A DNA stretch of 64,000 nucleotides, from assembly GCA_964503955.1 (NCBI GenBank), contig CAZDCG010000001.1, positions 109,804 through 173,803 on the forward strand, written 5' to 3'. Under the pieces are notes generated by a model. The model saw nothing but the letters and a program-made list of their open reading frames with translations, was not told the origin of the DNA and did not search any database. A program made the translations under genes and the position numbers. The stretch comes from an uncultured Gammaproteobacteria bacterium (GTDB lineage Bacteria > Patescibacteriota > Patescibacteriia > VMEV01 > CAYQCH01). Below, one piece after another: positions 2,940 to 57,673 of this stretch. The number at the start of each line of letters is the position of its first letter. The first letter of the stretch is position 1.

Positions 2940-4331
2940 TCAGGCCAGCTCCTCCGCCAATCGGTAAATGTCGCCAGCTCCCATAAAGAGAAGCACGTCA
3001 TCTTTTCTAACGATTTGGCTGAGCTTGTCTTTCAATTCAGCAAGATTCCCGCCATACATGACCTTTCTTTGCTGTTCGCGGCGAAGGTCGCGTTCTTTGA
3101 TTGCGTCAACCAGCATATGCGCATTCATTTCCTTGTCGGAAAGGACTTCGCGCCCGGCAACATCATAGATATCAGGAATGATAACCAGATCCGCTTCATC
3201 AAAGGAAGCGACAAAATCATTGAAAAGAGCTTTTGTTCGATGACGGGTATGCGGCTGAAAAATGGCGATAAGGCGGCGATCTCCGTAAAAATCTCTCGCC
3301 GCTTCAAGCGTGGCATGCACCGCTGAGGGATGATGCGCGTAGTCGCTGATCACCGCAGCCATATTGTACAGCCCAAGAATCTGAAAGCGGCGCCAGGTGC
3401 CTTTAAAGTGTGCAAACCCCATGGCGATTTGCTCAGGCGATACGCCAAGATGCAGGGCAACGGAGGTAGCGGCAAGCGCATTATAGACATTAAAGCGGCC
3501 GGGAAATGGAAAATGCCATTCGCCTAATTCCTGTCCATGCGCGGAAATATCGACCACCTGCTTGCCTTTGATGGCGCGCCGGTTTCTTCCCAAGACATCC
3601 GCCGTCGTGCGCATGCCAAATGTCTTGACCTGGCAATTTGGCAACGTGAGTTTTTTTACCCCCTCGTCATCATGGTTGTAGACAAGAAGCCCGTCATTTG
3701 GCAGCTTATCAACGAGTTTTTGAAATGCACTATAGTAAGCTTCTTCCGTGCCGAAATAATCAAGGTGATCCGGCTGCATATTGGTAATCACCACGATTTG
3801 CGGATTGAATTCCAAAAAATGTTCTTTAAACTCATCCCCTTCAATGACCAAATACTCCGAAGCCCCTCCGCGGAAATTGCATCGCCATTCATTAACGATG
3901 CTTCCAACCATGACGGTTGGATCACAACCCGCATTGGCCAATACATGCCCAAGCATTGCCGTTGTAGTTGTTTTCCCTTTGTTTCCGGCAATGACAATGG
4001 TCTTGTACTTCTTTGAAAGTTCCCCCACCGCTTGAAAATTTGTCATGGTCGCAATATCAAGCTCCTTAGCCCTGACTAGCTCGGGGTTATCCTGCGGGAT
4101 GGCGTCATTGTAGATGACAAGTTCAATATCTTCTGAAACAGTTGATGCCTCATGTCCCGCAAAGACCGAAGCCCCTTTTTCAGCCAGTTGATCTGTCACA
4201 ATATTGGAATGCAAGTCTGAACCGGAGACCACAGCTCCGCGCGCAAGAAAAAAATGTGCGACGTAGGAAATCCCAATGCCGCCAATTCCGACAAAATGCA
4301 CGCGTTTTTTCTCTTCAATGCGCATAATCAA
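2940..4331 (-). CDS. murC: UDP-N-acetylmuramate--L-alanine ligase
   Basis: VHFVGIGGIGISYVAHFFLARGAVVSGSDL... Mur ligase N-terminal, central and C-terminal signature. Confidence 0.9.
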   Translation of the reverse strand: MIMRIEEKKRVHFVGIGGIGISYVAHFFLARGAVVSGSDLHSNIVTDQLAEKGASVFAGHEASTVSEDIELVIYNDAIPQDNPELVRAKELDIATMTNFQAVGELSKKYKTIVIAGNKGKTTTTAMLGHVLANAGCDPTVMVGSIVNEWRCNFRGGASEYLVIEGDEFKEHFLEFNPQIVVITNMQPDHLDYFGTEEAYYSAFQKLVDKLPNDGLLVYNHDDEGVKKLTLPNCQVKTFGMRTTADVLGRNRRAIKGKQVVDISAHGQELGEWHFPFPGRFNVYNALAATSVALHLGVSPEQIAMGFAHFKGTWRRFQILGLYNMAAVISDYAHHPSAVHATLEAARDFYGDRRLIAIFQPHTRHRTKALFNDFVASFDEADLVIIPDIYDVAGREVLSDKEMNAHMLVDAIKERDLRREQQRKVMYGGNLAELKDKLSQIVRKDDVLLFMGAGDIYRLAEELA

Positions 4332-5407: not shown

Positions 5408-6574
5408 TTACGCGCGACGCAGCCCGCGCACCGCCCGGCGGACAACCTGCTTGCTGCCTTCAGTCGTTTGCCGCGAAATATTAATAACAATGCCCATGGC
5501 CGCGAAAAGGACGATTAAAGAAGAACTTCCATAACTGACGAATGGCAGCGGCAAACCGGTGATCGGCAGCAGCCCCACCATGGCCGAAATATTCACAAAG
5601 CTTTGAAAGCCGATCCAGCTCATAATCCCCGCCACCAAAAGTTTGGCAAAGACATCAGGAGCATGCCGAGCGATATGATAGCCGCGGAAAATCAATCCAA
5701 ACAAGACAAGCAAAAACATGGTGACAGCCAGAAAACCAAGTTCTTCAGCGATAATGGCAAAAATGGAGTCGCCGATCACTTCAGGAAGGTACAAATGCTT
5801 TTGACGGGAATAGCCAAACCCAAGCCCTAGCAAGCCGCCGGATCCGATGGCGAGCAGCGCCTGGTTGATGTGATAGCCGATTCCCTGCGGATCAAGTTCC
5901 GGATGCAAAAATACGGTAAACCGCGCCGCACGGTAAGGAGCGGCTTTGATCAGAATCCAAAGGAACGCCAAACCAAGCGCGCCCAATGCGGCAAGATGCT
6001 TCATATTCGCGCCGGCCACAAAATAAACCATCAGCGCGATCATCACGATAATCGACATGGTTCCCACATCCGGCTGCAGAAAAATCAAACCGATGACGAT
6101 TCCCAAAGAGATCAAAAAGGGCATTAATCCGTCGGAAAAATCTTTGATGACTTTTTTGTCGCGTTTCTCAAGCCAGGCGGCAAGATAAATAATGAACGCC
6201 AGTTTTGCGACTTCAGAGGGTTGAAAGGTAATCGGCCCAAGGCTCAGCCAGCTTTTTGCTCCGCCATAGGTCGCGCCAAGCCCGGGAATAAAGACGGCTA
6301 AGAGAAGGATAATGGCACCGACAAAGATCGGAAAAGCGAATTTCTTCCAGAGACGGTAATCAATCAAAGCCATGGCGATGCAAACAAAGATGCCGGGAAT
6401 AAATCCGTTAAAGAGCTGATGCTTTACATAGTAGAGACTGTCGCCGAAACGCTGAAATGCCACCGCCGTGGAAACGGATGAGAGCATGACAATGCCAAAA
6501 AGCGCGACAAAGGCAAATAGGCCAAGGAAAAGATAATCAGGCGCGCGATGATTTGATGCTTTGCGTAAACTCAC
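5408..6574 (-). CDS. ftsW: SEDS-family peptidoglycan glycosyltransferase FtsW
   Basis: A 10-TM SEDS protein inside the mur operon, directly abutting murG and overlapping murD. Confidence 0.85.
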   Translation of the reverse strand: MSLRKASNHRAPDYLFLGLFAFVALFGIVMLSSVSTAVAFQRFGDSLYYVKHQLFNGFIPGIFVCIAMALIDYRLWKKFAFPIFVGAIILLLAVFIPGLGATYGGAKSWLSLGPITFQPSEVAKLAFIIYLAAWLEKRDKKVIKDFSDGLMPFLISLGIVIGLIFLQPDVGTMSIIVMIALMVYFVAGANMKHLAALGALGLAFLWILIKAAPYRAARFTVFLHPELDPQGIGYHINQALLAIGSGGLLGLGFGYSRQKHLYLPEVIGDSIFAIIAEELGFLAVTMFLLVLFGLIFRGYHIARHAPDVFAKLLVAGIMSWIGFQSFVNISAMVGLLPITGLPLPFVSYGSSSLIVLFAAMGIVINISRQTTEGSKQVVRRAVRGLRRA

Positions 6575-7977
6575 ATGCTTGATCTTAGCTGCTGTACGGC
6601 TTGGTTGAACTGATCTCCGCGGTCAAATTCATTCTTGAACAGCCCGAAGCTGGCGCAGCCGGGAGAAAGCAGGATTACCGTTCCCTCACCCGCCAGAAGA
6701 TAAGCCTGCTTGACGGCATCCTGCATATTGGCTGCCTGAACCTGTTCAATTGATTCTGAAACAACCTGCCTGAAGCGATCCGTTCCCTCGCCAGGGAGCC
6801 AGACAATTGCTTTGACGCGCTCTACCTCTTGAGCGGCCTGCTCAAAATCAAGTCCTTTATCCGATCCGCCGGCAATCAGCACGATCGGACGGCCCTGCAT
6901 GGCCTTTAATCCGGCAACCAGCGCCACGGGAGTAGTTGATGTGGTGTCATTGATGAAGGTGCGTCCTTTCAGCTCATCGATGAATTGCAGACGCCCTTCA
7001 AGAGAACGGAATGAACCGATTTGCTCCTGCAGCGGCTTGAGTTCGGATTCCACCTGCCGCACGGCAGCGACCGCGGCAAGGATATTGTCGTAATTATGCT
7101 CGCCGCGAAGCGGAACCTGATTCACGTCAACAAGCTCGGTTTCTTTACCGTTCAGCCGCTCTATGACTTTGGACCCGCGCAGGAAATAACCTTCGAGCTC
7201 CTGCGAACGGTCATACCACCGGACCTTCGCTTGCGTTCTCTCGCCGATCTCTTTTGTAAAATCATTCGTATGGTTGATGATGGCCACCTGTTCAGGCGTT
7301 TGGTGCTTGGTGATCACTTCTTTTACCGCCGCGTAAGCATTCATATCGCCGTTATAACGATTGAGATGATCAGGGTAGACATTGAGCAAGACCGCTATAT
7401 CCGGACTTTGCTGCTTGCGGTCAAGATATTCGAGCATGAAGTTGGACAATTCAAGCACCACATAGTCATCTTCCTTTACACCGTCAAGAAATTCCAGCGG
7501 TGATTGCTTGGCGATATTGCCCCCAAGCCAGACTTTTTTCGGATAGGCTTTCAGCAAATGGGCGATCAAAGCCGTAGTCGTGCTCTTCCCCCTTGTTCCC
7601 GTAATCCCGATGATTTTGGACGGACATTGCGAGAAAAAAAGATTCATTTCCGTTTCAACGGGAATATCATGCTCAATAGCGAGCTGTACAAAACGAGATG
7701 TTACCGGCACGCCTGGGTTTGGCACGACCAGATCAGCTTTGAGAATATCCGCTTCATCATGGCCGCCAAGCTTCCATTCGATCGTGCCTTCATAGTTGAT
7801 TTTTCGCGCGTACACCTTCACGCGCTCCACCTGCCGAGCAAGCTCCTCCTCCCTCTTTAAATCTGTAATCACCACATGCGCGCCTTGGCGTAAAAAAAAG
7901 CATGCCGCGGCATAACCGCTGCCGTGCTCGTACTGGCCAAGCCCCAGGATCAAGATGGTTTTTCCTTTATAGTTCAT
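6571..7977 (-). CDS. murD: UDP-N-acetylmuramoylalanine--D-glutamate ligase
   Basis: KTILILGLGQYEHGSGYAAACFFLRQGAHVVITDLK... MurD N-terminal Rossmann plus Mur ligase core. Confidence 0.9.
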   Translation of the reverse strand: MNYKGKTILILGLGQYEHGSGYAAACFFLRQGAHVVITDLKREEELARQVERVKVYARKINYEGTIEWKLGGHDEADILKADLVVPNPGVPVTSRFVQLAIEHDIPVETEMNLFFSQCPSKIIGITGTRGKSTTTALIAHLLKAYPKKVWLGGNIAKQSPLEFLDGVKEDDYVVLELSNFMLEYLDRKQQSPDIAVLLNVYPDHLNRYNGDMNAYAAVKEVITKHQTPEQVAIINHTNDFTKEIGERTQAKVRWYDRSQELEGYFLRGSKVIERLNGKETELVDVNQVPLRGEHNYDNILAAVAAVRQVESELKPLQEQIGSFRSLEGRLQFIDELKGRTFINDTTSTTPVALVAGLKAMQGRPIVLIAGGSDKGLDFEQAAQEVERVKAIVWLPGEGTDRFRQVVSESIEQVQAANMQDAVKQAYLLAGEGTVILLSPGCASFGLFKNEFDRGDQFNQAVQQLRSSM

Positions 7978-11806: not shown

Positions 11807-12417
11807 AATTATTCAACAAAAAACACCCAATAATCCTCGACGAAAATTGGATGTTTTTTGTTTTACCTGTCGGAAAAGCAGGGTACAGATCTAAACGAGA
11901 AAAGAACACACTTTGAAGGGAAAGGAATTCCACTGGTTCTTAAAAGAACCTTATTCGCCCGGGAAGGGCGAGCCGGCATAACCAGACGACACTGTATTCC
12001 ATACCCATGCACCGATGTGACCGGATATGAGAATCAATAAATGTCTTTGGATATCATCTCATCTTAGCCGTCCCCGCATAAGAAAAGACGATGTTTTTAC
12101 GCCAGCACAGAGCAATTTTGATGTGAAGGATCTGTAACCCTGCCCTGCCGGCAGGAAGCAGGAATTAGTGCGACAGAGCGTAGACCATGACGCGATCAAG
12201 CATACGTCCCATTACACGACGATAGAGCGACTTTCTTTTTCTTCGTGACATATTTGTTTTTGCGCCCGCAGAGGCAAGGAAGCATCATTTCCACGCCGCA
12301 CAGTCGTATGACTCTAGTGCTGGCGGGTCACCCCCTATTTTGTGAAATAAGGATGGCGAAATCAGGACCTGCTTACCTCTGACAGGCTTTTTATTTAATA
12401 AGAGTTAATAAGTTGTG

Positions 12418-13038: not shown

Positions 13039-13185
13039 ATGAGAAGTTGTAAATGATGGTGGGTACGAATTACGAATTTACAAATTTCTTTTTAGTATCT
13101 TTTCGTTTAATAAGAAGCTTGTCTTATTTGTAAATTTGTATCAGATTTGTAATTTGCACCTTCTGCGATTCGTGATGTTTGTATT
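13039..13185. promoter_or_regulatory. lexA upstream region with a candidate promoter and repeated ATTTGTAA / ATTCGT motifs (candidate LexA autoregulatory operator)
   Basis: 13064-13087 is tacgaattacgaatttacaaattt (the motif on the gene strand, 26 bp from the start). 13145-13153 is atttgtaat and 13167-13181 is gattcgtgatgtttg. ATTTGTA is repeated several times between 13125 and 13153. Confidence 0.5.
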
Positions 13186-13361
13186 GTATACGAACAAAAC
13201 ACGAACGTCAAGTGTTGCCATAATTAGCTAAAATCGGAGATTTGTTCATATCTTGTTCGCTTTATCCACAGGTTAAGATCTTTTCCTTTTAAGGGCCAAG
13301 AGAGGTACGGCAAATCTGGCCATCGAGAACTCCCCCAAGAACATCTATCCTTTATCCAAAT

Positions 13362-13422
13362 CCTTCTCCCCCCTCTTTTCTAGAGGGGGTGGAGGAACAA
13401 ACTCCTTCCCCCTAGAAAAGGG
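13362..13422. repeat. Pair of inverted CCCCTCTTTTCTAGAGGGGG / CCTTCCCCCTAGAAAAGGGG elements
   Basis: A related copy, gcttttctagggggaagaag, is at 21161..21182 in the divergent sufB promoter region. Confidence 0.4.
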
Positions 13423-13539
13423 GACTGAATAAAGCGTGGAGTAAGAGAAAACATAGCAAGGGGGTTCTTGCGAACGTCCATACCCGTCGTCTGAAAATCT
13501 GTGCGTCTTAAACGTCTAACAAGTTTGTGCGTCTATAAA

Positions 13540-13575
13540 ACAAAACGCCCTGGTTTTTGCCAAGGGCGTTTTTCA
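13540..13575. terminator. Bidirectional rho-independent terminator AAAACGCCCT-ggtttttgcca-AGGGCGTTTTT
   Basis: A perfect 8-bp stem flanked by an A-run and a T-run, immediately 3' of the DUF378 gene. Confidence 0.7.
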
Positions 13576-13588
13576 TAGGTGTTTTGTG

Positions 13589-31551: not shown

Positions 31552-32724
31552 ATGACTCTAGAGCAGCACCTCAAACGTTTCACGCAAGATCAGCGATTTA
31601 CTCCAGAATTTTTCGACTTGTCCAAAAGCATAGACCGAAAGAGATTGGCAGCATACTTTGACCAAAACTTGATTGTCGAAGTAAACGATTCTTATACGGA
31701 CCAATTAGAGGAATTATTTCAAATAGACAATCCCAGATTAGTTCATGCACAAGCGTATGAAACCTCATTGGCTGAATTTCTTGAGGAAATAGAATCGCGA
31801 GCCCCGCTTTACCAACAAGGTAAATGGGTCTATTTCCCATGGAACAGAAAATTGATCCATATTCTTGATGAACCATTTTTTCAAAAAGTCCGGTTCTCAA
31901 GAAACCGTAATTATATCAGCCGTGACGAACAAGCAAATTTCTACCACAGCTCTATCGGTATAGCAGGCTTGAGTGTTGGAAACAGCATCGCAACGACCAT
32001 CGTAATGCTCGGGGGAGCAAAACATATCCGATTGGCTGATTTTGATGAGCTTAGCTTATCAAACTGCAATAGGATCCGCACGAGCATTGAAAACCTTGGA
32101 ATTCCAAAAATTATTATCACGGCCAGACAAATCTACGAACTCAACCCGTACGCAAACGTGCAGATATTCCCTGAGGGGATCACCGAAGAAAATATTGAAG
32201 CATTCTTGAGTTCATCGCCCCCCCTCGATATCGTTATCGACGAGCTTGATAACCTCGCCATGAAATACTTGTTAAGAATGAAAGCGAAGGAAAACAGAAT
32301 TCCCGTACTTATGGGGACAGATAACGGTGACGACTGCATTATCGATTTGGAACGATACGATCTTGACCCCACACGGGAGATTTTTCACGGCCGCCTAAAC
32401 GGTGTAGAATTCAATGATCTAAAAAATCTCACAAAAGCACAAATAGGAAAAATCGCGGGGCGCCTTATCGGCATTGAAAATATTTCCTCGAGAATGATGG
32501 AATCTCTTCCCGAAATCGGAACATCGCTCATTTCATGGCCCCAGCTTGGAAGCGCGGCTCTTATGAATGGAGCTGCTCTGGCCTACTGTGCTCGCAGAAT
32601 TCTCAACAAGCAGCCAATTGCAGACGGCAGATGTTTCCTTTCCGTTGAAAAAGAGCTTTTGCCAGCCAAATCATATGATGCAGAACTGCAGAAAAGGAAA
32701 AAACTAGCTAGCCAATTAATGTGA
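31552..32724 (+). CDS. E1/ThiF/MoeB-family adenylyltransferase with about 170-aa N-terminal extension
   Basis: Rossmann nucleotide loop SIGIAGLSVGNSIATTIVMLGGAKHIRLADFDELSLSNCNRI matches the ThiF family. There are no C-terminal CxxC pairs. ATG at 31552 is 1 nt after the PaaK-like stop, so the ORF-track start at 31429 is rejected. Confidence 0.7.
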   Translation: MTLEQHLKRFTQDQRFTPEFFDLSKSIDRKRLAAYFDQNLIVEVNDSYTDQLEELFQIDNPRLVHAQAYETSLAEFLEEIESRAPLYQQGKWVYFPWNRKLIHILDEPFFQKVRFSRNRNYISRDEQANFYHSSIGIAGLSVGNSIATTIVMLGGAKHIRLADFDELSLSNCNRIRTSIENLGIPKIIITARQIYELNPYANVQIFPEGITEENIEAFLSSSPPLDIVIDELDNLAMKYLLRMKAKENRIPVLMGTDNGDDCIIDLERYDLDPTREIFHGRLNGVEFNDLKNLTKAQIGKIAGRLIGIENISSRMMESLPEIGTSLISWPQLGSAALMNGAALAYCARRILNKQPIADGRCFLSVEKELLPAKSYDAELQKRKKLASQLM

Positions 32725-35423: not shown

Positions 35424-35493
35424 TAGTTGACCACCTCCAAGGATAGAACCACAACCTGCGGCCTTTTCTTGCAAAAGCAAAATCCCCACACTG

Positions 35494-35564
35494 CTCGGAG
35501 ACTAGGATTCGAACCTAGATTACCAGGGCCAGAACCTGGCGTCCTACCATTAGACGATCTCCGA
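35494..35564 (-). tRNA. tRNA-Gln (anticodon CUG)
   Basis: Manual fold gives a 7-bp acceptor stem with a U1-A72 pair (as in tRNA-Gln), D-arm GTC/AATGGTAG/GAC, anticodon stem CCAGG/CCTGG with loop UUCUGGC, T-arm CTAGG-TTCGAAT-CCTAG and discriminator G. CCA is not encoded. Confidence 0.8.
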
Positions 35565-43437: not shown

Positions 43438-43786
43438 ACAATTCGTTTAGGAATGTTTTCGGTTTGTTCGTAAGCGTTTCAAAAGCTTCAAATACTTGAG
43501 CTTCTGAAATAGCCGGAGCGTCTTTGAATTTTTCGACATCCGCGGAATTCAGATCAGTGATGAGCCCTACGGATGTAAGCCCGATCTGGCCTTTGACGAT
43601 CAATGCGACAATGGCGCTTTGACATTTATGACATTGAATATGCACCAGCTGCGCTTCCGCTTTTTCCTCAACAATATTGGCCTGAAACGGCTGATATTGT
43701 TCCGAGCACAGTGGACATTTGGAGATCAGACGCAATCCTTCCGGAGAAAAATGGTACGAACCTGAAGGAAGATCGATTGAATCCAT
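43421..43786 (-). CDS. Hypothetical Zn-ribbon protein (CPLC...CHKC)
   Basis: A 121-aa ORF with paired Cys motifs. It overlaps the rplY ORF-track start by 17 nt. Confidence 0.35.
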   Translation of the reverse strand: MDSIDLPSGSYHFSPEGLRLISKCPLCSEQYQPFQANIVEEKAEAQLVHIQCHKCQSAIVALIVKGQIGLTSVGLITDLNSADVEKFKDAPAISEAQVFEAFETLTNKPKTFLNELFERDK

Positions 43787-44010
43787 AGGTCAAAAGGCAA
43801 TCCCTGCTTTAATGGCAGGGAAACATCATCTTTCGATGAAGTGCGCTCATTATACAGGTGAGAAAAGAATTGTCAATAATACCCCGTCTGTGGTCTATTA
43901 TACCACGGCTTGCCAGACGGACCAGAGGTTGTGCCAAGCGTTCCCGGACCAGGCTGGCACTGAATGCTGATTGCTAAAGCCCAAGCTAGCGCTAGCTTCC
44001 GTGCCCCCCT

Positions 44011-48315: not shown

Positions 48316-48340
48316 AAACGGTTAACGGGTTAAAAAGATG

Positions 48341-48370
48341 CAGCCTGGGATGTCCAGGCTGTTTTGTTTT
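48341..48370 (+). terminator. gyrB rho-independent terminator CAGCCTGG-gatgt-CCAGGCTG + TTTTGTTTT
   Basis: A perfect 8-bp stem with a T-run. Confidence 0.7.
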
Positions 48371-48437
48371 CACTGAACAGGGATTTTTTGATGCGTTTGT
48401 CTGTGAGTCTTAGGATCCAGGTCTGTGGCCCGCCAAC

Positions 48438-48466
48438 TTGCCCAAAAAGCCGTTCTCCGTTATACT
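48438..48466 (+). promoter_or_regulatory. Candidate promoter TTGCCC-17-TATACT for secE-nusG
   Basis: aacTTGCCCaaaaagccgttctccgtTATACTttg. Confidence 0.4.
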
Positions 48467-48482
48467 TTGCGCATAGATCAAA

Positions 48483-48505
48483 TAACCCCGCCGGGGTTGT
48501 TTTTA
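48483..48505 (+). other. GC hairpin AACCCCGCCGGGGTT + TTTTT between the promoter and secE (attenuator-like)
   Basis: A stem-loop plus T-run lying downstream of the candidate promoter and 35 nt before the secE ATG. Confidence 0.35.
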
Positions 48506-48540
48506 GATAAAATAGATTGTCGCTAATCTCAGCCTAAAAT

Positions 48541-48735
48541 ATGGCAAAAATGAAGACCCCGTGGATTGTCCGGTATTTCCGTGAGTCCTTTATTGAGCTT
48601 CAAAAGGTTGTCTGGCCTTCGCAGGAAACCGTGCGCAAGCATACTATTCTGGTTATCGCGATCAGCTTATTCGTGGCTGTGTATTTTGCGGCTTCCGACT
48701 ACGTTCTTAACTTCGCATTGGAATCTCTCATCTAA
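48541..48735 (+). CDS. secE: Preprotein translocase subunit SecE
   Basis: A 64-aa protein with a single C-terminal TM and a conserved amphipathic N-terminus (REVKKVVWPS-type: QKVVWPSQETVRKHT). Confidence 0.85.
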   Translation: MAKMKTPWIVRYFRESFIELQKVVWPSQETVRKHTILVIAISLFVAVYFAASDYVLNFALESLI

Positions 48736-48789
48736 GTCTCGTCTCTCCTAGCCTGGCTAATCTAGCCAGTCTAGCTGGTCTAAACAACT

Positions 48790-53015: not shown

Positions 53016-56015
53016 TCAAACAAGACTGTACGGACAGATGCTTCTAAAATCGCAGTTTTGACAGGCCTTCTTGTCTTTGCTTGTTTCTTCAAAGGTGCTT
53101 TGCGTCAATTCGTCCAATGTTTCGATGATATCGTTCTTTAACTTTTCTTTCTGCTTGTCCGTTGCGATGAATGACTTGCCTTCATTTTCTTTCAGATAGT
53201 AGTACGTCAGCTCTTCAACCTCTTTGCCAAGCACTTCTTCGGCAGCAATTTGATACAGTGTGAGCTGATGTTTATCTAATGATCGATCGTTTTTGGGCAT
53301 TTTACCCGTTTTATAATCAACCAGTTTCAAGCCTGAACGCCCCTGATCCACGCGGTCGATGGAGCCCCGTAATTTGTATTTGCCGATTTGAATCGTAAAT
53401 GCCTGCTCGGTGGCAATAACATTCGGCCATTCATGTTCATGACGGTCGTAGAAAGCAGACAAAGCCTCCTTCCCTTTTTCATAATTTTCCTTTTTCTCTT
53501 TCTCATTGGCATACCATTCATCAATCCAATGTTCTTCATAGAGAGCAAGGAGATCTTCTTTTGAAGGAGCTTTGGGATTTCCCTGCGCCATGATTTTGAA
53601 AAATTCCTCAAGCGCCTTATGCATGGATTTGCCAAAGCTTGCGGCATGCGTGCTGCGCACGGGAATTTTGAGAATATAATTGTAACGGTACTGCCAGGGA
53701 CAGGTTTCAAAGGCTTTGAGCTGGGAATAACTGAAGATTTTTGGCAAATATGGACGATAATCCATGGAGCGGGCGCGCAGCCGCTCAGGATTTTTTACCT
53801 GCATGGCAAGGAATGGCGCGGCCGCTTTGGTTTGTTTTGGCTCGGTTTGTTCAAAGCCAAGCTCAAAGAGAAAGCGTGATAATTTTTTCTTCCTCGCTCC
53901 GCCATAATCCTGCGCCGAGGTAAGAAAGAGTCCTTCTTTAGCACGGGTTAACGCCACATAGAATAAACGGCGCTCTTCTTCCAAATGCGGATTATCGCCA
54001 GGTGTCACCTCATTGACAAATGCTTCCGGCAAAGGGATGGCATCTTTGCGCTCGCTGGTTGGAAAGCGTCGATCCACCAGGCTGACAACAAAGACATGCT
54101 TGAATTCCAAGCCTTTTGATCCATGGATCGTCATGACTTTGACCGTTTCAGGCCCGATTTCCACATCCGCCGGCAAAGCACCATTGTCCCCGGCCTGTTT
54201 GACAAGCTCAAGATACGCCAGAAATTCTCGCGTGGTTTTTACTTCCGCCTGGCGCTCGAATTCCTGCATATGGCGCCAAAATTGATTCAGCAATCCATAG
54301 GTTTCGCGCTGGGTTTGCGGATCAAGCGATTCATAGTAGGTTTTCAGACCATAGTCGTCGATAAAGGCCATCGCCACTTCGCTCACCCGCTTGTCGCGTG
54401 CAAAATGCGCGTGCTTTTCCAGATGATCAAGAATGATGCGGCAAATACTCTGCCCCGCTTCACTGACATTGATTTCTGAAGCATGTTTAACGGCTTCTCT
54501 CAAAGAAACCGCGTTCTTCTTTGCATAATGCAGCAAGGCCATGAGATCCTCATTGGAGAGATTGGTCGTGGGAAGAATAAGAATGCGGTACAGCGCGGTG
54601 CTTTCGGCATAGTCGTCGAGCAGCCGCAAATACGAAAGAATATCAAGCACCGCGGGCGTGGAGAATAATCCCTGCGATGCAAGAAATTGAAACGGGATCT
54701 CCGCCATCGTAAGCTGCTGAATGAACGGTTCGGCCGAGCTATGGGCGCGCACAAGAATCGCAAAATCTCCCCAGGTAAGCTCTGGGTCTTCCTGTTTGAG
54801 GGCAAGCATCTTTTCAACTACCCCGGCAGCTTCATCGTCTAAACGTTCGTAATGAAGATGCTCAATGATTCCTTTCTTTTGCGATGAGGCGATCAATTCC
54901 TTTTTGATCGGCGCAAAACCCGCTAAATCAAGCTGCTTCTTTTCCGCTTTGTCGGTAAGCTCCTTATCTACAGAGAGCTGAAATTCCAGGCGGTGCGGAT
55001 TATTATGCTGAATAAACGCGTATGCCAGGTCAAGAATATTCTGTGAAGAGCGGTAATTGTGTGTAAGGACAACCTGCTGCGCTTCAGGAAAATCGCTTTT
55101 AAAACCGAGAATATTGCTTAATGAAGCGCCGCGGAATTTATAAATGCTCTGATCATCATCCCCCACGACATTGATATTTTTCTGATCGGAAGCAAGGAGC
55201 TTAATCAGATCATACTGCGCCCAATTGGTGTCTTGGAATTCATCCACCAGAATAAATTTGAATTGATGGCGGTACTTTTCAAGAATGAGTGCGCGTTCCT
55301 GAAAGAGGCGGCGTAACGAAAGAATCAAATCGCCGAAATCAAGCGCATCCTGTTCATGCAGCAGCTGCTGATAGACAGCGTATGCATGCGCTACTTCCTT
55401 GATTTTTTCCATCTCCTCTCTCCATAGCTGCGCTAATTTTTCATCTTCATATTTGCGGCCGGCCAGTCTTGAAGCGAATTCCTTAAAGGCTTCACTCTCC
55501 GGGTCATCTGCCAATGCATCCGCATAAGAAAGATATTGCTGAGGCGTGACCCCTTCGTCTTTTGCCCGGGAAAAATGCGTTAAGAGCTCTGAAAGGAATT
55601 TTGTCGGTTTGCCCAGAGGACGGTAATAATCCAGAGCAAATCGGTCCAGATTCGTTTTCATGAGCATCCACTGATTGGTTTGATCAAGCACGCGAAAATC
55701 CGGGGAGATGCCAATCGCGATTCCTTCCTGGCGGAGAATGCGCTCGGCAAAGGCGTGAAAAGTCATGACCCAGAGATTAACGTATCCAAACGGGAGAAGA
55801 TGATCAATACGCTCTTCCATCTCCCCGGCGGCTTTATCCGTGAAGGTGAGGCAAAGAATCTCTTCGGGTTTGGCAAGCCCCTGATCAATCAGCCAGCCGA
55901 CGCGATGCGTGAGCACCGTCGTTTTTCCCGTACCGGCTCCCGCCACAATCAGCAAAGGCCCTTCCCCGTGGGTAACGGCTTGTTTTTGCTCTTCATTTAG
56001 TCGGGAGAGATCCAT
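53016..56015 (-). CDS. UvrD/PcrA-family SF1 helicase fused to C-terminal RecB-family (PD-(D/E)xK, Cas4-like 4-Cys) nuclease; AddA-like
   Basis: Walker A LIVAGAGTGKTTVL, helicase motifs throughout, and a C-terminus ETCPWQYRYNYILK...DYKTGK...CQNCDFRSICPY. No addB partner is adjacent. Confidence 0.8.
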   Translation of the reverse strand: MDLSRLNEEQKQAVTHGEGPLLIVAGAGTGKTTVLTHRVGWLIDQGLAKPEEILCLTFTDKAAGEMEERIDHLLPFGYVNLWVMTFHAFAERILRQEGIAIGISPDFRVLDQTNQWMLMKTNLDRFALDYYRPLGKPTKFLSELLTHFSRAKDEGVTPQQYLSYADALADDPESEAFKEFASRLAGRKYEDEKLAQLWREEMEKIKEVAHAYAVYQQLLHEQDALDFGDLILSLRRLFQERALILEKYRHQFKFILVDEFQDTNWAQYDLIKLLASDQKNINVVGDDDQSIYKFRGASLSNILGFKSDFPEAQQVVLTHNYRSSQNILDLAYAFIQHNNPHRLEFQLSVDKELTDKAEKKQLDLAGFAPIKKELIASSQKKGIIEHLHYERLDDEAAGVVEKMLALKQEDPELTWGDFAILVRAHSSAEPFIQQLTMAEIPFQFLASQGLFSTPAVLDILSYLRLLDDYAESTALYRILILPTTNLSNEDLMALLHYAKKNAVSLREAVKHASEINVSEAGQSICRIILDHLEKHAHFARDKRVSEVAMAFIDDYGLKTYYESLDPQTQRETYGLLNQFWRHMQEFERQAEVKTTREFLAYLELVKQAGDNGALPADVEIGPETVKVMTIHGSKGLEFKHVFVVSLVDRRFPTSERKDAIPLPEAFVNEVTPGDNPHLEEERRLFYVALTRAKEGLFLTSAQDYGGARKKKLSRFLFELGFEQTEPKQTKAAAPFLAMQVKNPERLRARSMDYRPYLPKIFSYSQLKAFETCPWQYRYNYILKIPVRSTHAASFGKSMHKALEEFFKIMAQGNPKAPSKEDLLALYEEHWIDEWYANEKEKKENYEKGKEALSAFYDRHEHEWPNVIATEQAFTIQIGKYKLRGSIDRVDQGRSGLKLVDYKTGKMPKNDRSLDKHQLTLYQIAAEEVLGKEVEELTYYYLKENEGKSFIATDKQKEKLKNDIIETLDELTQSTFEETSKDKKACQNCDFRSICPYSLV

Positions 56016-56039
56016 AGTTCAGGTATCTTAACATATGAG

Positions 56040-56500
56040 ACTCAAGCAGCAATGAGATACACTGCGGATGAAATGTGTACATAGGCGGACTCTGGACAAG
56101 TCTGAGCTTTTCTGCTATAGTCGGTGCAAAGGTTTCACCGGGGCCGGCGGTCGTAAGGTCTCGCCTTCCCCCTGGGCCCCATACACCCAAGCCCCGGTGA
56201 AACTCTACATTTAGGGAGAGAAGCTCGGCGAGGCGGACCTCGACCGAAGCTGAATGGATAGGGGTTACCTATGCCCCGCGCCAATTGGATTACGGCATGG
56301 TTCGCGCTAACCGTGCTTCTCCCCCTTTCAAACTAGTTCTTGACAGTCCGGCATGGCTGGACTATAGTGCGACAGTCTACGAATGTCCATTCGGACAGAC
56401 GACTAACGAGGTGTGGCTCTACCGTTTTCCCCACTTTCCCCCTTTTCGGTACGTGACACACCAGGGGGCAGCACGCGATTCCCCGTTGCGAGCTGCCCCC
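56040..56500. ncRNA. ORF-poor, highly structured about 460-nt region (candidate structured RNA of unknown class)
   Basis: Nested perfect inverted repeats TTCACCGGGGC/GCCCCGGTGAA (56135/56190), AGGGAGAGAAGC/GCTTCTCCCCCT (56212/56315), GGGGGCAGC/GCTGCCCCC (56464/56491), plus local hairpins. I could not match it to RNase P, tmRNA or SRP consensus by eye. Confidence 0.25.
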
Positions 56501-56503
56501 ACT

Positions 56504-56537
56504 AAAAAAGCTCTCTTCAATCGAAGAGAGCTTTTTG
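56504..56537. terminator. Bidirectional terminator AAAAAAGCTCTCTTC-aatc-GAAGAGAGCTTTTT (rmuC 3' end)
   Basis: A perfect 10-bp stem flanked by A6 and T5. Confidence 0.75.
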
Positions 56538-56554
56538 GTTTTTCAAGATACTGT

Positions 56555-57673
56555 TTATGCTTCAAGCTGCGGTTTGTCGATGAGTTCGGTTTCAATACTT
56601 CCTCCGATAGCGCCGTCCGTAATCTTGACCACGTCTTTGTCGATCTTCTTCAGCTCTTTAGAAGAAGCATTATAGGCATTGACCATGGTTGTCATATGAT
56701 TGCCTACCTTCTTGTGGTATTCCTCAAACACGGCCATATGCTTGCCAAGCTCTCCGACGCGCTTAATCACTTCTTTGACAGAAGCCTCCATCTTCAAGGC
56801 TTTTAATCCTTGTAAAACGGTTTGCAGATACGCGAAGAACGATGTTGGAGAAACGATGATCACCCGCTTCTTGAATGCGTATTCAATCAAGTCTTCTGAG
56901 CGGACGTCAGTGCTCCCTACTTTATAAATCAATAGATTGTAATAAATCCCTTCAGCAGGAATGAACATAAAGGCGAAGTCCGTCGTATCCTCGTTGGGGC
57001 GGATATATTTAGCTGTTTCATCAATACGGTTTTTCACGTCCATTTTAAACTCTTTGCTAAGCTTCTCCCGCTTGGCCGCGTCTTGTGCCTCCATCAGCTG
57101 ATTATACTTTTCAAGCGAGAATTTCGCGTCGATCGGAATAATTTTGTCATTCATGAAAATCGCCGCATCAACGATTTCACCGTTATCAAACTTGTACTGG
57201 ATTTTGTATTGGTTCGGTTGCAGAACATGCGACAAAAGCGTTTCCAGAAAATATTCTCCAAGGATTCCGCGCTGTTTTGGATTCTTCAGGATATTTTCCA
57301 GGCTCTGCAGCTGCTCGGAAAAGCCCAGAATCTGCTTATTGGTCCCTTCGACCTGGGTGAGCTTGCGGGTGATTTCTTCAATGATTTTGCCGGTATTCTC
57401 AAAATGCGCCTGGATATTTTGCGCCTGGGACTGATGGGACTTATGCAGAATGGCATTCATCTGATCAAGACGGGCCTGGATTTCCTGCCGATTCTGCGCG
57501 CCGCTTTGTGAAACTTCTTTGCGCAGCCCTTCAACCATCTCAAAGAGCATTTTTTGAACAGGGTCATCCGACGAATCAGCTGTCATGGATGACAATTTCT
57601 TAAACAGCAGAAAAACAACTCCCAGCAAAACGATGAGAAGCAAGAAGACAAGGATGAGAACGATATCGCTCAT
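56555..57673 (-). CDS. rmuC: DNA recombination protein RmuC
   Basis: N-terminal TM, long coiled-coil, and a C-terminal RmuC nuclease-like domain (FAFMFIPAEGIYYN...IIVSPTSFFAYLQTV). Confidence 0.8.
   Translation of the reverse strand: MSDIVLILVFLLLIVLLGVVFLLFKKLSSMTADSSDDPVQKMLFEMVEGLRKEVSQSGAQNRQEIQARLDQMNAILHKSHQSQAQNIQAHFENTGKIIEEITRKLTQVEGTNKQILGFSEQLQSLENILKNPKQRGILGEYFLETLLSHVLQPNQYKIQYKFDNGEIVDAAIFMNDKIIPIDAKFSLEKYNQLMEAQDAAKREKLSKEFKMDVKNRIDETAKYIRPNEDTTDFAFMFIPAEGIYYNLLIYKVGSTDVRSEDLIEYAFKKRVIIVSPTSFFAYLQTVLQGLKALKMEASVKEVIKRVGELGKHMAVFEEYHKKVGNHMTTMVNAYNASSKELKKIDKDVVKITDGAIGGSIETELIDKPQLEA

Follow-up and report, generated by a model that had tools for sequence, protein, structure and literature searches.

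Introduction

Bacterial small RNAs that are common to several phyla are very few. The sX13 RNA and the RsaE/RoxS RNAs of the Bacillales have a sigma-70-type promoter and C-rich loops, the terminator loop included, and are presumed to pair with G-rich or Shine-Dalgarno-like sequences; each of them is confined to one order or phylum. For another such RNA, 6C, a family is listed in Rfam. The 6C RNA is reported to be a small stand-alone RNA that carries C-runs in its hairpin loops and pairs with G-rich targets without Hfq (PMC6486639), and sX13 of Xanthomonas is reported as a C-rich-loop small RNA (PMC3771888). The Pxr RNA of Myxococcus is an sRNA of ~100 nt with several stem-loops, the first loop of which is essential for function; its gene immediately follows pxrR and is transcribed from a sigma-54 promoter (PMC5684412).

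In this study, we analysed an intergenic spacer in a 64,000-nt stretch of DNA (hereafter, the window), whose organism appears to be a Peregrinibacteria-like bacterium of the candidate phyla radiation (CPR), judging from its RmuC homologues and base composition. CPR genomes are small and tightly packed and, to our knowledge, no regulatory small RNAs have been described in CPR bacteria; our literature search for such RNAs found none. In such compact genomes, a spacer of 240-1000 nt dedicated to sRNA units would therefore be notable.

Results

The spacer between the helicase-nuclease gene and rmuC has no conserved ORF

The spacer of 539 nt (56016-56554) lies between the start of a helicase-nuclease gene (53016-56015, minus strand, start at 56015; 999 aa with a UvrD-type helicase and a PD-(D/E)XK nuclease domain) and the stop of rmuC (56555-57673, minus strand, stop at 56555). 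A sequence-only reading of this region had found no credible ORF, and both the ORF list and a peptide comparison with relatives bear it out: the ORFs in the spacer are at most 65 aa long, except for a 173-aa ORF that runs antisense into rmuC, and the peptide comparison detected no conserved ORF in 56016-56554. Translations of the spacer match those of the relatives at one conserved hairpin only, in every frame and on both strands, indicating that the conservation is at the nucleotide level and not at the protein level. A small peptide, GTG...FPHFPPFR(stop), readable in a 13-codon frame in two high-GC contigs (L033 and L034), was rejected as coding because a third contig (L032) lacks the start and frame, the window lacks the stop and the conservation is seen in all frames.

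Four other gaps in the window (11834-12417, 13039-13585, 31901-32720 and 48316-48789; 470-820 nt) have no ORF of at least 90 aa, which is unusual for a compact genome. In a simple scan, two of the four had one promoter-like site along with one or two terminator-like ones, and no RNA was matched in any of them when the window was searched against Rfam at the gathering thresholds. Elsewhere, at 43801-43876 on the minus strand, a perfect consensus promoter (TTGACA-16-TATAAT, 12/12) stands upstream of an ORF starting at 43786 and is followed after ~25 nt by a short hairpin and then a U-rich tract; this segment may be a leader or an attenuator.

The spacer matches no RNA family in Rfam 15

The window was scanned as a whole against Rfam 15 at the gathering thresholds, and 55950-56620 was scanned on both strands at E <= 10. 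The gathering scan gave a single match, a tRNA-Gln far from the spacer, and the E <= 10 scan of 55950-56620 gave only noise centred on the terminator. ARAGORN found only the tRNA-Gln (35493-35564) and no tmRNA in the window, and a tmRNA scan of 16 related loci from CPR and high-GC genomes found none. No Rfam family was detected in the spacers of 15 related loci, nor by additional E-value scans of L032-L034; the Rfam matches in the related loci were tRNAs and one phage tmRNA only. Riboswitch families of Rfam were not matched, and the 6C, RsaE/RoxS and sX13 models were absent among the matches up to E = 10.

The sequence-only reading had judged the size suitable for RNase P RNA or tmRNA without recognising the signatures of either, and the Rfam and ARAGORN checks, both negative, agree with it. 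RNase P RNA, tmRNA and 6S RNA resemble the whole spacer in size (about 200-400 nt), high GC and dense pairing. However, the spacer has neither a covariance-model match to RNase P RNA nor its P4 / CR-I signature, lacks the tRNA-like ends of tmRNA as well as any ARAGORN or Rfam match to it, and differs from 6S RNA, which is one long hairpin of ~180 nt with a central bubble, in consisting of separate hairpins, again with no Rfam match; no single helix closes its 5' and 3' ends. Judged by these searches, the spacer belongs to no Rfam 15 family, RNase P RNA and tmRNA included.

The plus strand carries two putative RNA units

The dense pairing claimed in the sequence-only reading was confirmed by folding: the plus strand of 56125-56540 folds far better than shuffled sequences (-188.7 kcal/mol, z = -9.7, 0/100 dinucleotide shuffles as good), and the minus strand gives -183.1 kcal/mol with z = -5.6. 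Inverted repeats are located at 56132-56144 / 56191-56203 (13 bp, perfect), 56213-56228 / 56311-56326 (16 bp, 88% complementary) and 56464-56476 / 56488-56500 (13 bp, 92% complementary). The three perfect repeats reported earlier are all present, but AGGGAGAGAAGC / GCTTCTCCCCCT is not perfect, having one A.C mismatch, and the three long repeats run consecutively instead of nesting. The region was also said to end at a canonical bidirectional terminator, and indeed an intrinsic terminator with a 14-bp perfect stem, a 4-nt loop and T-runs on both strands is located at 56505-56536; it is predicted to end U2 (see below) on the plus strand and rmuC on the minus strand.

Promoters and terminators were called solely by their match to the consensus. 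Four sigma-70-like sites were found in 1 kb around the spacer versus 0.5 +/- 0.7 in shuffles. On the plus strand, P1 (56093..56121; TGGACA-17-TATAGT with TG before the -10, 10/12 consensus) is divergent from the helicase gene, and P2 (56340..56368; TTGACA-17-TATAGT, 11/12) is the best promoter match of the region. P2 had escaped the sequence-only reading, in which its spacer was taken for a local hairpin, GACAGTCCGG...CTGGACT; the other local hairpin proposed there, CGAATGGACATTCG, is the minus-strand reading of CGAATGTCCATTCG (56381-56394). One promoter-like site was found on the minus strand (56389 to 56361), which we consider a by-product of the palindromic ACTATAGT and which has no counterpart in the relatives. 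The two plus-strand promoters and the terminator divide the region into two units, U1 and U2, so that the single large structured RNA proposed at first does not fit well: there are two plus-strand promoter-like sites, and a pair of separate promoter-to-terminator units is present in most relatives. In the predicted fold, the region is a string of local hairpins in which long-range helices between U1 and U2 are absent.

U1 is a putative small RNA of ~200 nt with two hairpins on the plus strand (about 56128-56335), its ends being set from P1 and P2, and it folds with -99.4 kcal/mol and z = -5.5 (minus strand, z = -3.6). Hairpin 1 (56132..56203) is closed by a perfect stem of 13 bp, GTTTCACCGGGGC / GCCCCGGTGAAAC, and its apical loop is UCCCCCU (about 56166-56172). 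Hairpin 2 (56213..56326) is long and irregular, and its closing arms, AGGGAGAGAAGC... / ...GCUUCUCCCCCU, are rich in purines on the 5' side and in C/U on the 3' side. An analogous hairpin of ~117 nt, with GGGAGGAGCU / AGCUCCUCCC as its closing pair, is present in L025, the closest relative. We found no clear intrinsic (U-tract) terminator for U1 in the window, and U1 may therefore read through into U2. U1 did not behave as a conserved family, as five U1 units could be aligned only in the terminator and over ~20 nt of the 5' end.

U2 is a putative small RNA of ~165 nt on the plus strand (about 56375-56540), its ends being set from P2 and the terminator, and it folds with -73.4 kcal/mol and z = -7.4 (minus strand, z = -4.6). 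It consists, in order, of a small 5' hairpin, the conserved C/U-loop hairpin, the GGGGGCAGC hairpin and the terminator. The core of the proposed family (56398..56466, plus strand; 81.1 bits with model R1, a covariance model built from seven non-viral sequences) has an outer stem (56410-56415 / 56457-56462) and an inner stem (56420-56424 / 56447-56451) that closes a 22-nt loop (56425-56446), UUUUCCCCACUUUCCCCCUUUU, in which two C-runs are separated by ACUUU. The next hairpin, GGGGGCAGCACGC / GCGAGCUGCCCCC (56464..56500, plus strand), includes UCCCC in its apical loop and is colinear with ACCAGGGGG...CCCCCGACTAAAAAAGCT of L025. The predicted fold of the window thus contains three C-rich loops, UCCCCCU, UUUUCCCCACUUUCCCCCUUUU and UCCCC.

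Relatives keep the architecture and change the sequence

The nearest relatives, with 68-83% RmuC identity, keep the gene order NUDIX, rmuC, spacer, helicase. In 11 of the 12 syntenic relatives, the spacer (237-998 nt) contains one to three promoter-hairpin-terminator units on the same strand, and the spacer sequences are almost unalignable despite this common architecture. According to the sequence-only reading, absence of transcription together with a lack of conservation in relatives would have pointed to a mere GC-skewed spacer; in the comparison, the architecture is kept, as is the hairpin block in some relatives, and the spacer sequence is largely different. Counted over 13 syntenic spacers, the plus orientation of the window has 15 promoter-like and 12 terminator-like sites, versus five and one, respectively, for the other orientation, and the plus-orientation signals are ordered as promoter, hairpins and terminator. 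Three of the five opposite-strand promoter sites are within ~70 nt of the helicase start, the expected place for a promoter of that gene, which argues against a long helicase leader.

Unit-2 promoters matching the position of P2 were found in L002, L027 and L028, and a terminator after unit 1 in these three and in L029, whose unit-2 promoter is below the scan threshold. In L025, only one strong promoter precedes about 570 nt of hairpins before the first terminator, so that some genomes may make one long transcript. In the window and relatives, C-runs of at least four outnumber the corresponding G-runs (70 vs 42), and predicted hairpin loops are repeatedly C-rich and never G-rich; the C-rich loops in these units are UCCCCCU, AAUUCCCCCC, UUCCCCCC, AAUCCCCCCC and similar sequences. 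In L024, L028, L029 and L030, which are diverged positional equivalents, the C-runs of the loop are kept but the exact sequence is not. The rmuC-helicase spacer seems to behave as a fast-evolving small-RNA hotspot.

Spacer extremes among close relatives were seen in L025 (1161-2158, with a third unit), L030 (3614-3850) and L031 (3614-3877); the latter two have a distinct predicted RNA of ~190 nt with a long-range pair, CCGGGGGG / CCCCCCGG. Just ahead of its terminator, the single spacer RNA of L037 (about 3640-3700, reverse) has a sequence similar to a tRNA T-arm, CCCGGGTTCGATTCCCCCG, and neither ARAGORN nor Rfam gave a match at this site. In L002, the -35 element of the U1 promoter (TTGACA; 61-67 of the intergenic region, locus about 5609-5615) overlaps a -35 on the other strand (TTGTCA), and the -10 of that other-strand site ends 9 nt before the helicase ATG, suggesting that the two promoters stand back to back and that the helicase mRNA has little or no leader. 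In the window, only a weak counterpart was noticed by eye in 56016-56092 (TTGCTG-16-TAAGAT, 9 nt to the ATG). The records of L001, L002 and L004, the three closest relatives from the genome collection, are titled "uncultured Gammaproteobacteria bacterium"; these titles look unreliable, because the RmuC of all three, and the gene order of the two complete ones (L001 and L002), group with Peregrinibacteria/Patescibacteria MAGs.

A C/U-loop hairpin is shared by CPR, high-GC and phage contigs

All 33 nt of the block 56419-56451, CTACCGTTTTCCCCACTTTCCCCCTTTTCGGTA, recur unchanged in L002 (77% RmuC identity), in surroundings that cannot be aligned. L027 has the same 33-nt block with one extra T, and the stem of the L025 variant differs by a compensatory change from A-U to G-C. 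Three more copies, on the high-GC contigs L032, L033 and L034, came from a pattern scan of JGI metagenomes, and in all of them the block, its 22-nt loop included, is identical to that of the window. A TTGAC-type promoter-like site accompanies each of the three, and a plus-strand terminator, made of a GC hairpin and a U-run, was seen in L033 and L034; in these two, the U2 core alone forms a unit of about 105 nt. The best named homologues of a gene neighbouring the L034 copy are from Myxococcota (55-58% identity), and this contig is probably Myxococcota-like, L032-L034 being placed by protein similarity and base composition. L034 also has a 670-aa ORF that is, by eye, a candidate Ser/Thr kinase.

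Scans of IMG/VR gave two viral contigs, L038 and L039. In L039, 39 nt are identical to L034. In L038 (IMGVR_UViG_3300017971_000201, 160 kb, 5900-6600), the element fills a 158-nt gap between a tRNA-Lys and a tmRNA, and it is co-oriented with an array of 19 tRNAs and the tmRNA (126 bits), with HNH endonuclease genes interspersed. The loop of this copy is closed by a different long stem and differs in its last base, and the 3' end of the tmRNA resembles that of Mycobacterium phage Phabba. The loop is letter-perfect across the CPR, Myxococcota-like and phage copies, save for one base at its 3' end in the phage contigs.

Both viral copies, which are outside the training set of model R1, were found by the model with E = 1.6e-15 and 1.4e-07. 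It detected exactly one copy in the window and no repeats elsewhere in the window or the compared loci, and a search for diverged members with the same model returned exact-loop members only, L024, L028 and L029 being below threshold. With each of the two large collections scanned once, the family has at least nine sequences (the window, L002, L025, L027, L032-L034, L038 and L039). Eight of the nine share the loop GUUUUCCCCACUUUCCCCCUUU without change. The stems around the loop vary: pairing is 98% in the inner stem, where one compensatory change (A-U to G-C) was seen, and three pairs of the outer stem have changed on both sides. Read from the opposite strand, the G.U pairs of the outer stem would turn into A.C. 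The observed covariation score was reached by 12/500 shuffles and the paired-cell fraction by 15/500, and with nine sequences this covariation is suggestive only.

The flanks of the hairpin in the window agree with those of L034 at 28/35 positions versus 7-17/35 with those of the syntenic relatives, an incongruence that suggests lateral movement or unequal constraint. The genomic context of the element differs in every lineage, and L032-L034, L038 and L039 have it without the helicase gene.

No match to U2 was found by BLAST among annotated plasmids and phages, and the L038 region matched only the tmRNA of phage Phabba. In the literature, no match was found for a 14-mer of the loop, and 12-mers retrieved unrelated primers only. 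A looser loop pattern gave 17 matches in viral contigs, 15 of which were chance matches without a hairpin; L040 was also rejected as a chance match. A prophage attachment site at L039 was considered and rejected, as no PHROG family, and hence no integrase, was found on six of the larger ORFs within ~3 kb of the element. Short tandem repeats (units GCCGYTTTAG... and CACGGT/CACGGCC) directly follow the RNA terminator in L033 (780-900), L034 (175-300) and L032 (reverse, about 990-1100). L032 also has a tRNA-Ser ~150 nt upstream on the other strand and a terminal poly-C run that looks like an assembly artefact.

Discussion

We consider it somewhat probable that the spacer contains two tandem sRNA genes on the plus strand, that U2 belongs to a new C/U-loop family and that the C-rich loops pair in trans. 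Here, U1 would be transcribed from P1 and U2 from P2, both against the direction of rmuC and the helicase gene, and U2 would end at the shared bidirectional terminator; we infer transcription and the RNA ends from consensus matches to promoters and terminators. The U2 family, defined by an invariant 22-nt C/U loop on a stem, is uncatalogued in Rfam 15 and, as far as the contigs can be placed, spans CPR, phage contigs and high-GC bacteria, the last with one Myxococcota-like contig. The most likely mode of action, suggested by the analogy to 6C, sX13 and RsaE/RoxS, would be trans base-pairing, in which the exposed C-rich loops pair with G-rich, Shine-Dalgarno-like sites in target RNAs. No convincing candidate emerged when the 64-kb window was scanned for targets, and few Shine-Dalgarno motifs seem to precede the crudely called starts in this window.

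The likeness to 6C, RsaE and sX13 is a functional one, namely C-rich loops in a promoter-to-terminator unit, which are present here and in the relatives; with 6C, the stand-alone unit and the hairpin loops carrying C-runs are shared. However, 6C is an RNA of Actinobacteria, whereas the present element is found in CPR, Myxococcota-like and phage contigs and has a single 22-nt loop with two C-runs. Sequence similarity of U2 to sX13 and RsaE/RoxS is absent, and the U2 loop is identical across phyla and phage contigs, in contrast to the restriction of those RNAs to one order or phylum. Identity with Pxr, which was compared by description only, was rejected, since L033 and L034 have a sigma-70-like promoter and another neighbourhood. 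The complement of the loop resembles CR-I of RNase P RNA (11/14) and a 9-nt stretch of 16S rRNA. Complementarity to such universal RNAs was rejected as an explanation, because it is no better than expected for a 22-mer against several kilobases of RNA.

Conservation that extends into the stem and across phyla makes recognition by a protein or ribonucleoprotein a serious alternative; this cross-phylum identity could reflect either protein recognition or recent lateral transfer. The same RNA genes would then be present, and the loop and stem would bind a widely conserved protein or ribonucleoprotein, for which the RNA would be a decoy or cofactor; candidate partners would be KH-domain proteins (KhpA/B, for example), ribosomal protein S1, or the ribosome or RNase P itself. 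The (nearly) invariant loop and inner stem are stricter than typical seed conservation, and the L038 copy resides within a tRNA/tmRNA array, that is, among translation-related RNAs. However, gene neighbourhood links no candidate protein to the element, the contexts vary by lineage, and the retention of C-runs only in L024, L028, L029 and L030 fits flexible pairing better, so that we regard this alternative as possible but doubtful. Another thought, that P2 is fortuitous or secondary and that one large structured RNA of ~410 nt extends from P1 to the terminator at 56536, draws on the lack of a U-tract terminator for U1 in the window, the single strong promoter of L025 and the z of -9.7 for the whole stretch. 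It is unlikely in our view: P2 is the best promoter of the region, terminators after unit 1 (L002, L027, L028, L029) and promoters of unit 2 (L002, L027, L028) recur in relatives, the fold has local hairpins only with no helices linking U1 to U2, the U2 core stands alone in L033 and L034, and the U1 sequences are not conserved.

The sequence-only reading had also suggested a long 5' leader of the helicase gene, which runs against the signals, as these are on the opposite strand, and against the occurrence of the element without the helicase gene. More generally, the minus strand might be the functional one, as a helicase 5' leader or an rmuC 3' UTR whose GGGGGA loops act in cis or as a CsrA-type sponge. 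The minus-strand fold is also significant (z = -5.6), the site at 56389 to 56361 is promoter-like, and the A.C mismatch of hairpin 2 on the plus strand would be G.U on the minus strand; conversely, the outer-stem G.U pairs would become A.C. Across the relatives, terminator-like sites favour the plus orientation by 12 to 1, the 56389 site has no counterpart and the minus-strand sites of relatives are at most ~70 nt from the helicase start. L033 and L034 have no downstream gene on that strand and a U-run after the hairpin on the plus strand only, and the L038 element is co-oriented with the tRNAs. Minus-strand function is thus quite improbable. We give still less credence to a non-functional spacer, made of GC-rich palindromic debris or a mobile-element remnant with chance promoter matches. 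The rapid turnover of spacer length and content (237-998 nt, mostly unalignable) and the presence of the hairpin on phage contigs would suit such debris, but a 33-nt block has stayed identical while its surroundings diverged beyond alignment, the promoter-hairpin-terminator order recurs on one strand, and the element is not repeated elsewhere in the window or the compared loci.

Returning to two tandem sRNA genes with a C/U-loop U2, a bolder and rather unlikely version is that the hairpin is a mobile RNA module of CPR, Myxococcota-like bacteria and phages, which would have spread laterally and would act on a universal G-rich partner in translation or RNA processing rather than on lineage-specific mRNAs. 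The likeness of the flanks to the Myxococcota-like copies and the tRNA/tmRNA site in the phage hint at this. If it is true, phages and episymbiotic CPR bacteria could manipulate gene expression with the hairpin. If the C-rich loops merely pair with ribosome-binding sites, the units would be a solid, ordinary addition to the C-rich-loop class. A loop that is identical in CPR, Myxococcota-like and phage contigs and is absent from Rfam 15 would in itself make a useful new family, and the 22-nt loop offers a testable handle on translation regulation in organisms without Hfq and on the movement of small-RNA genes between lineages on phages.
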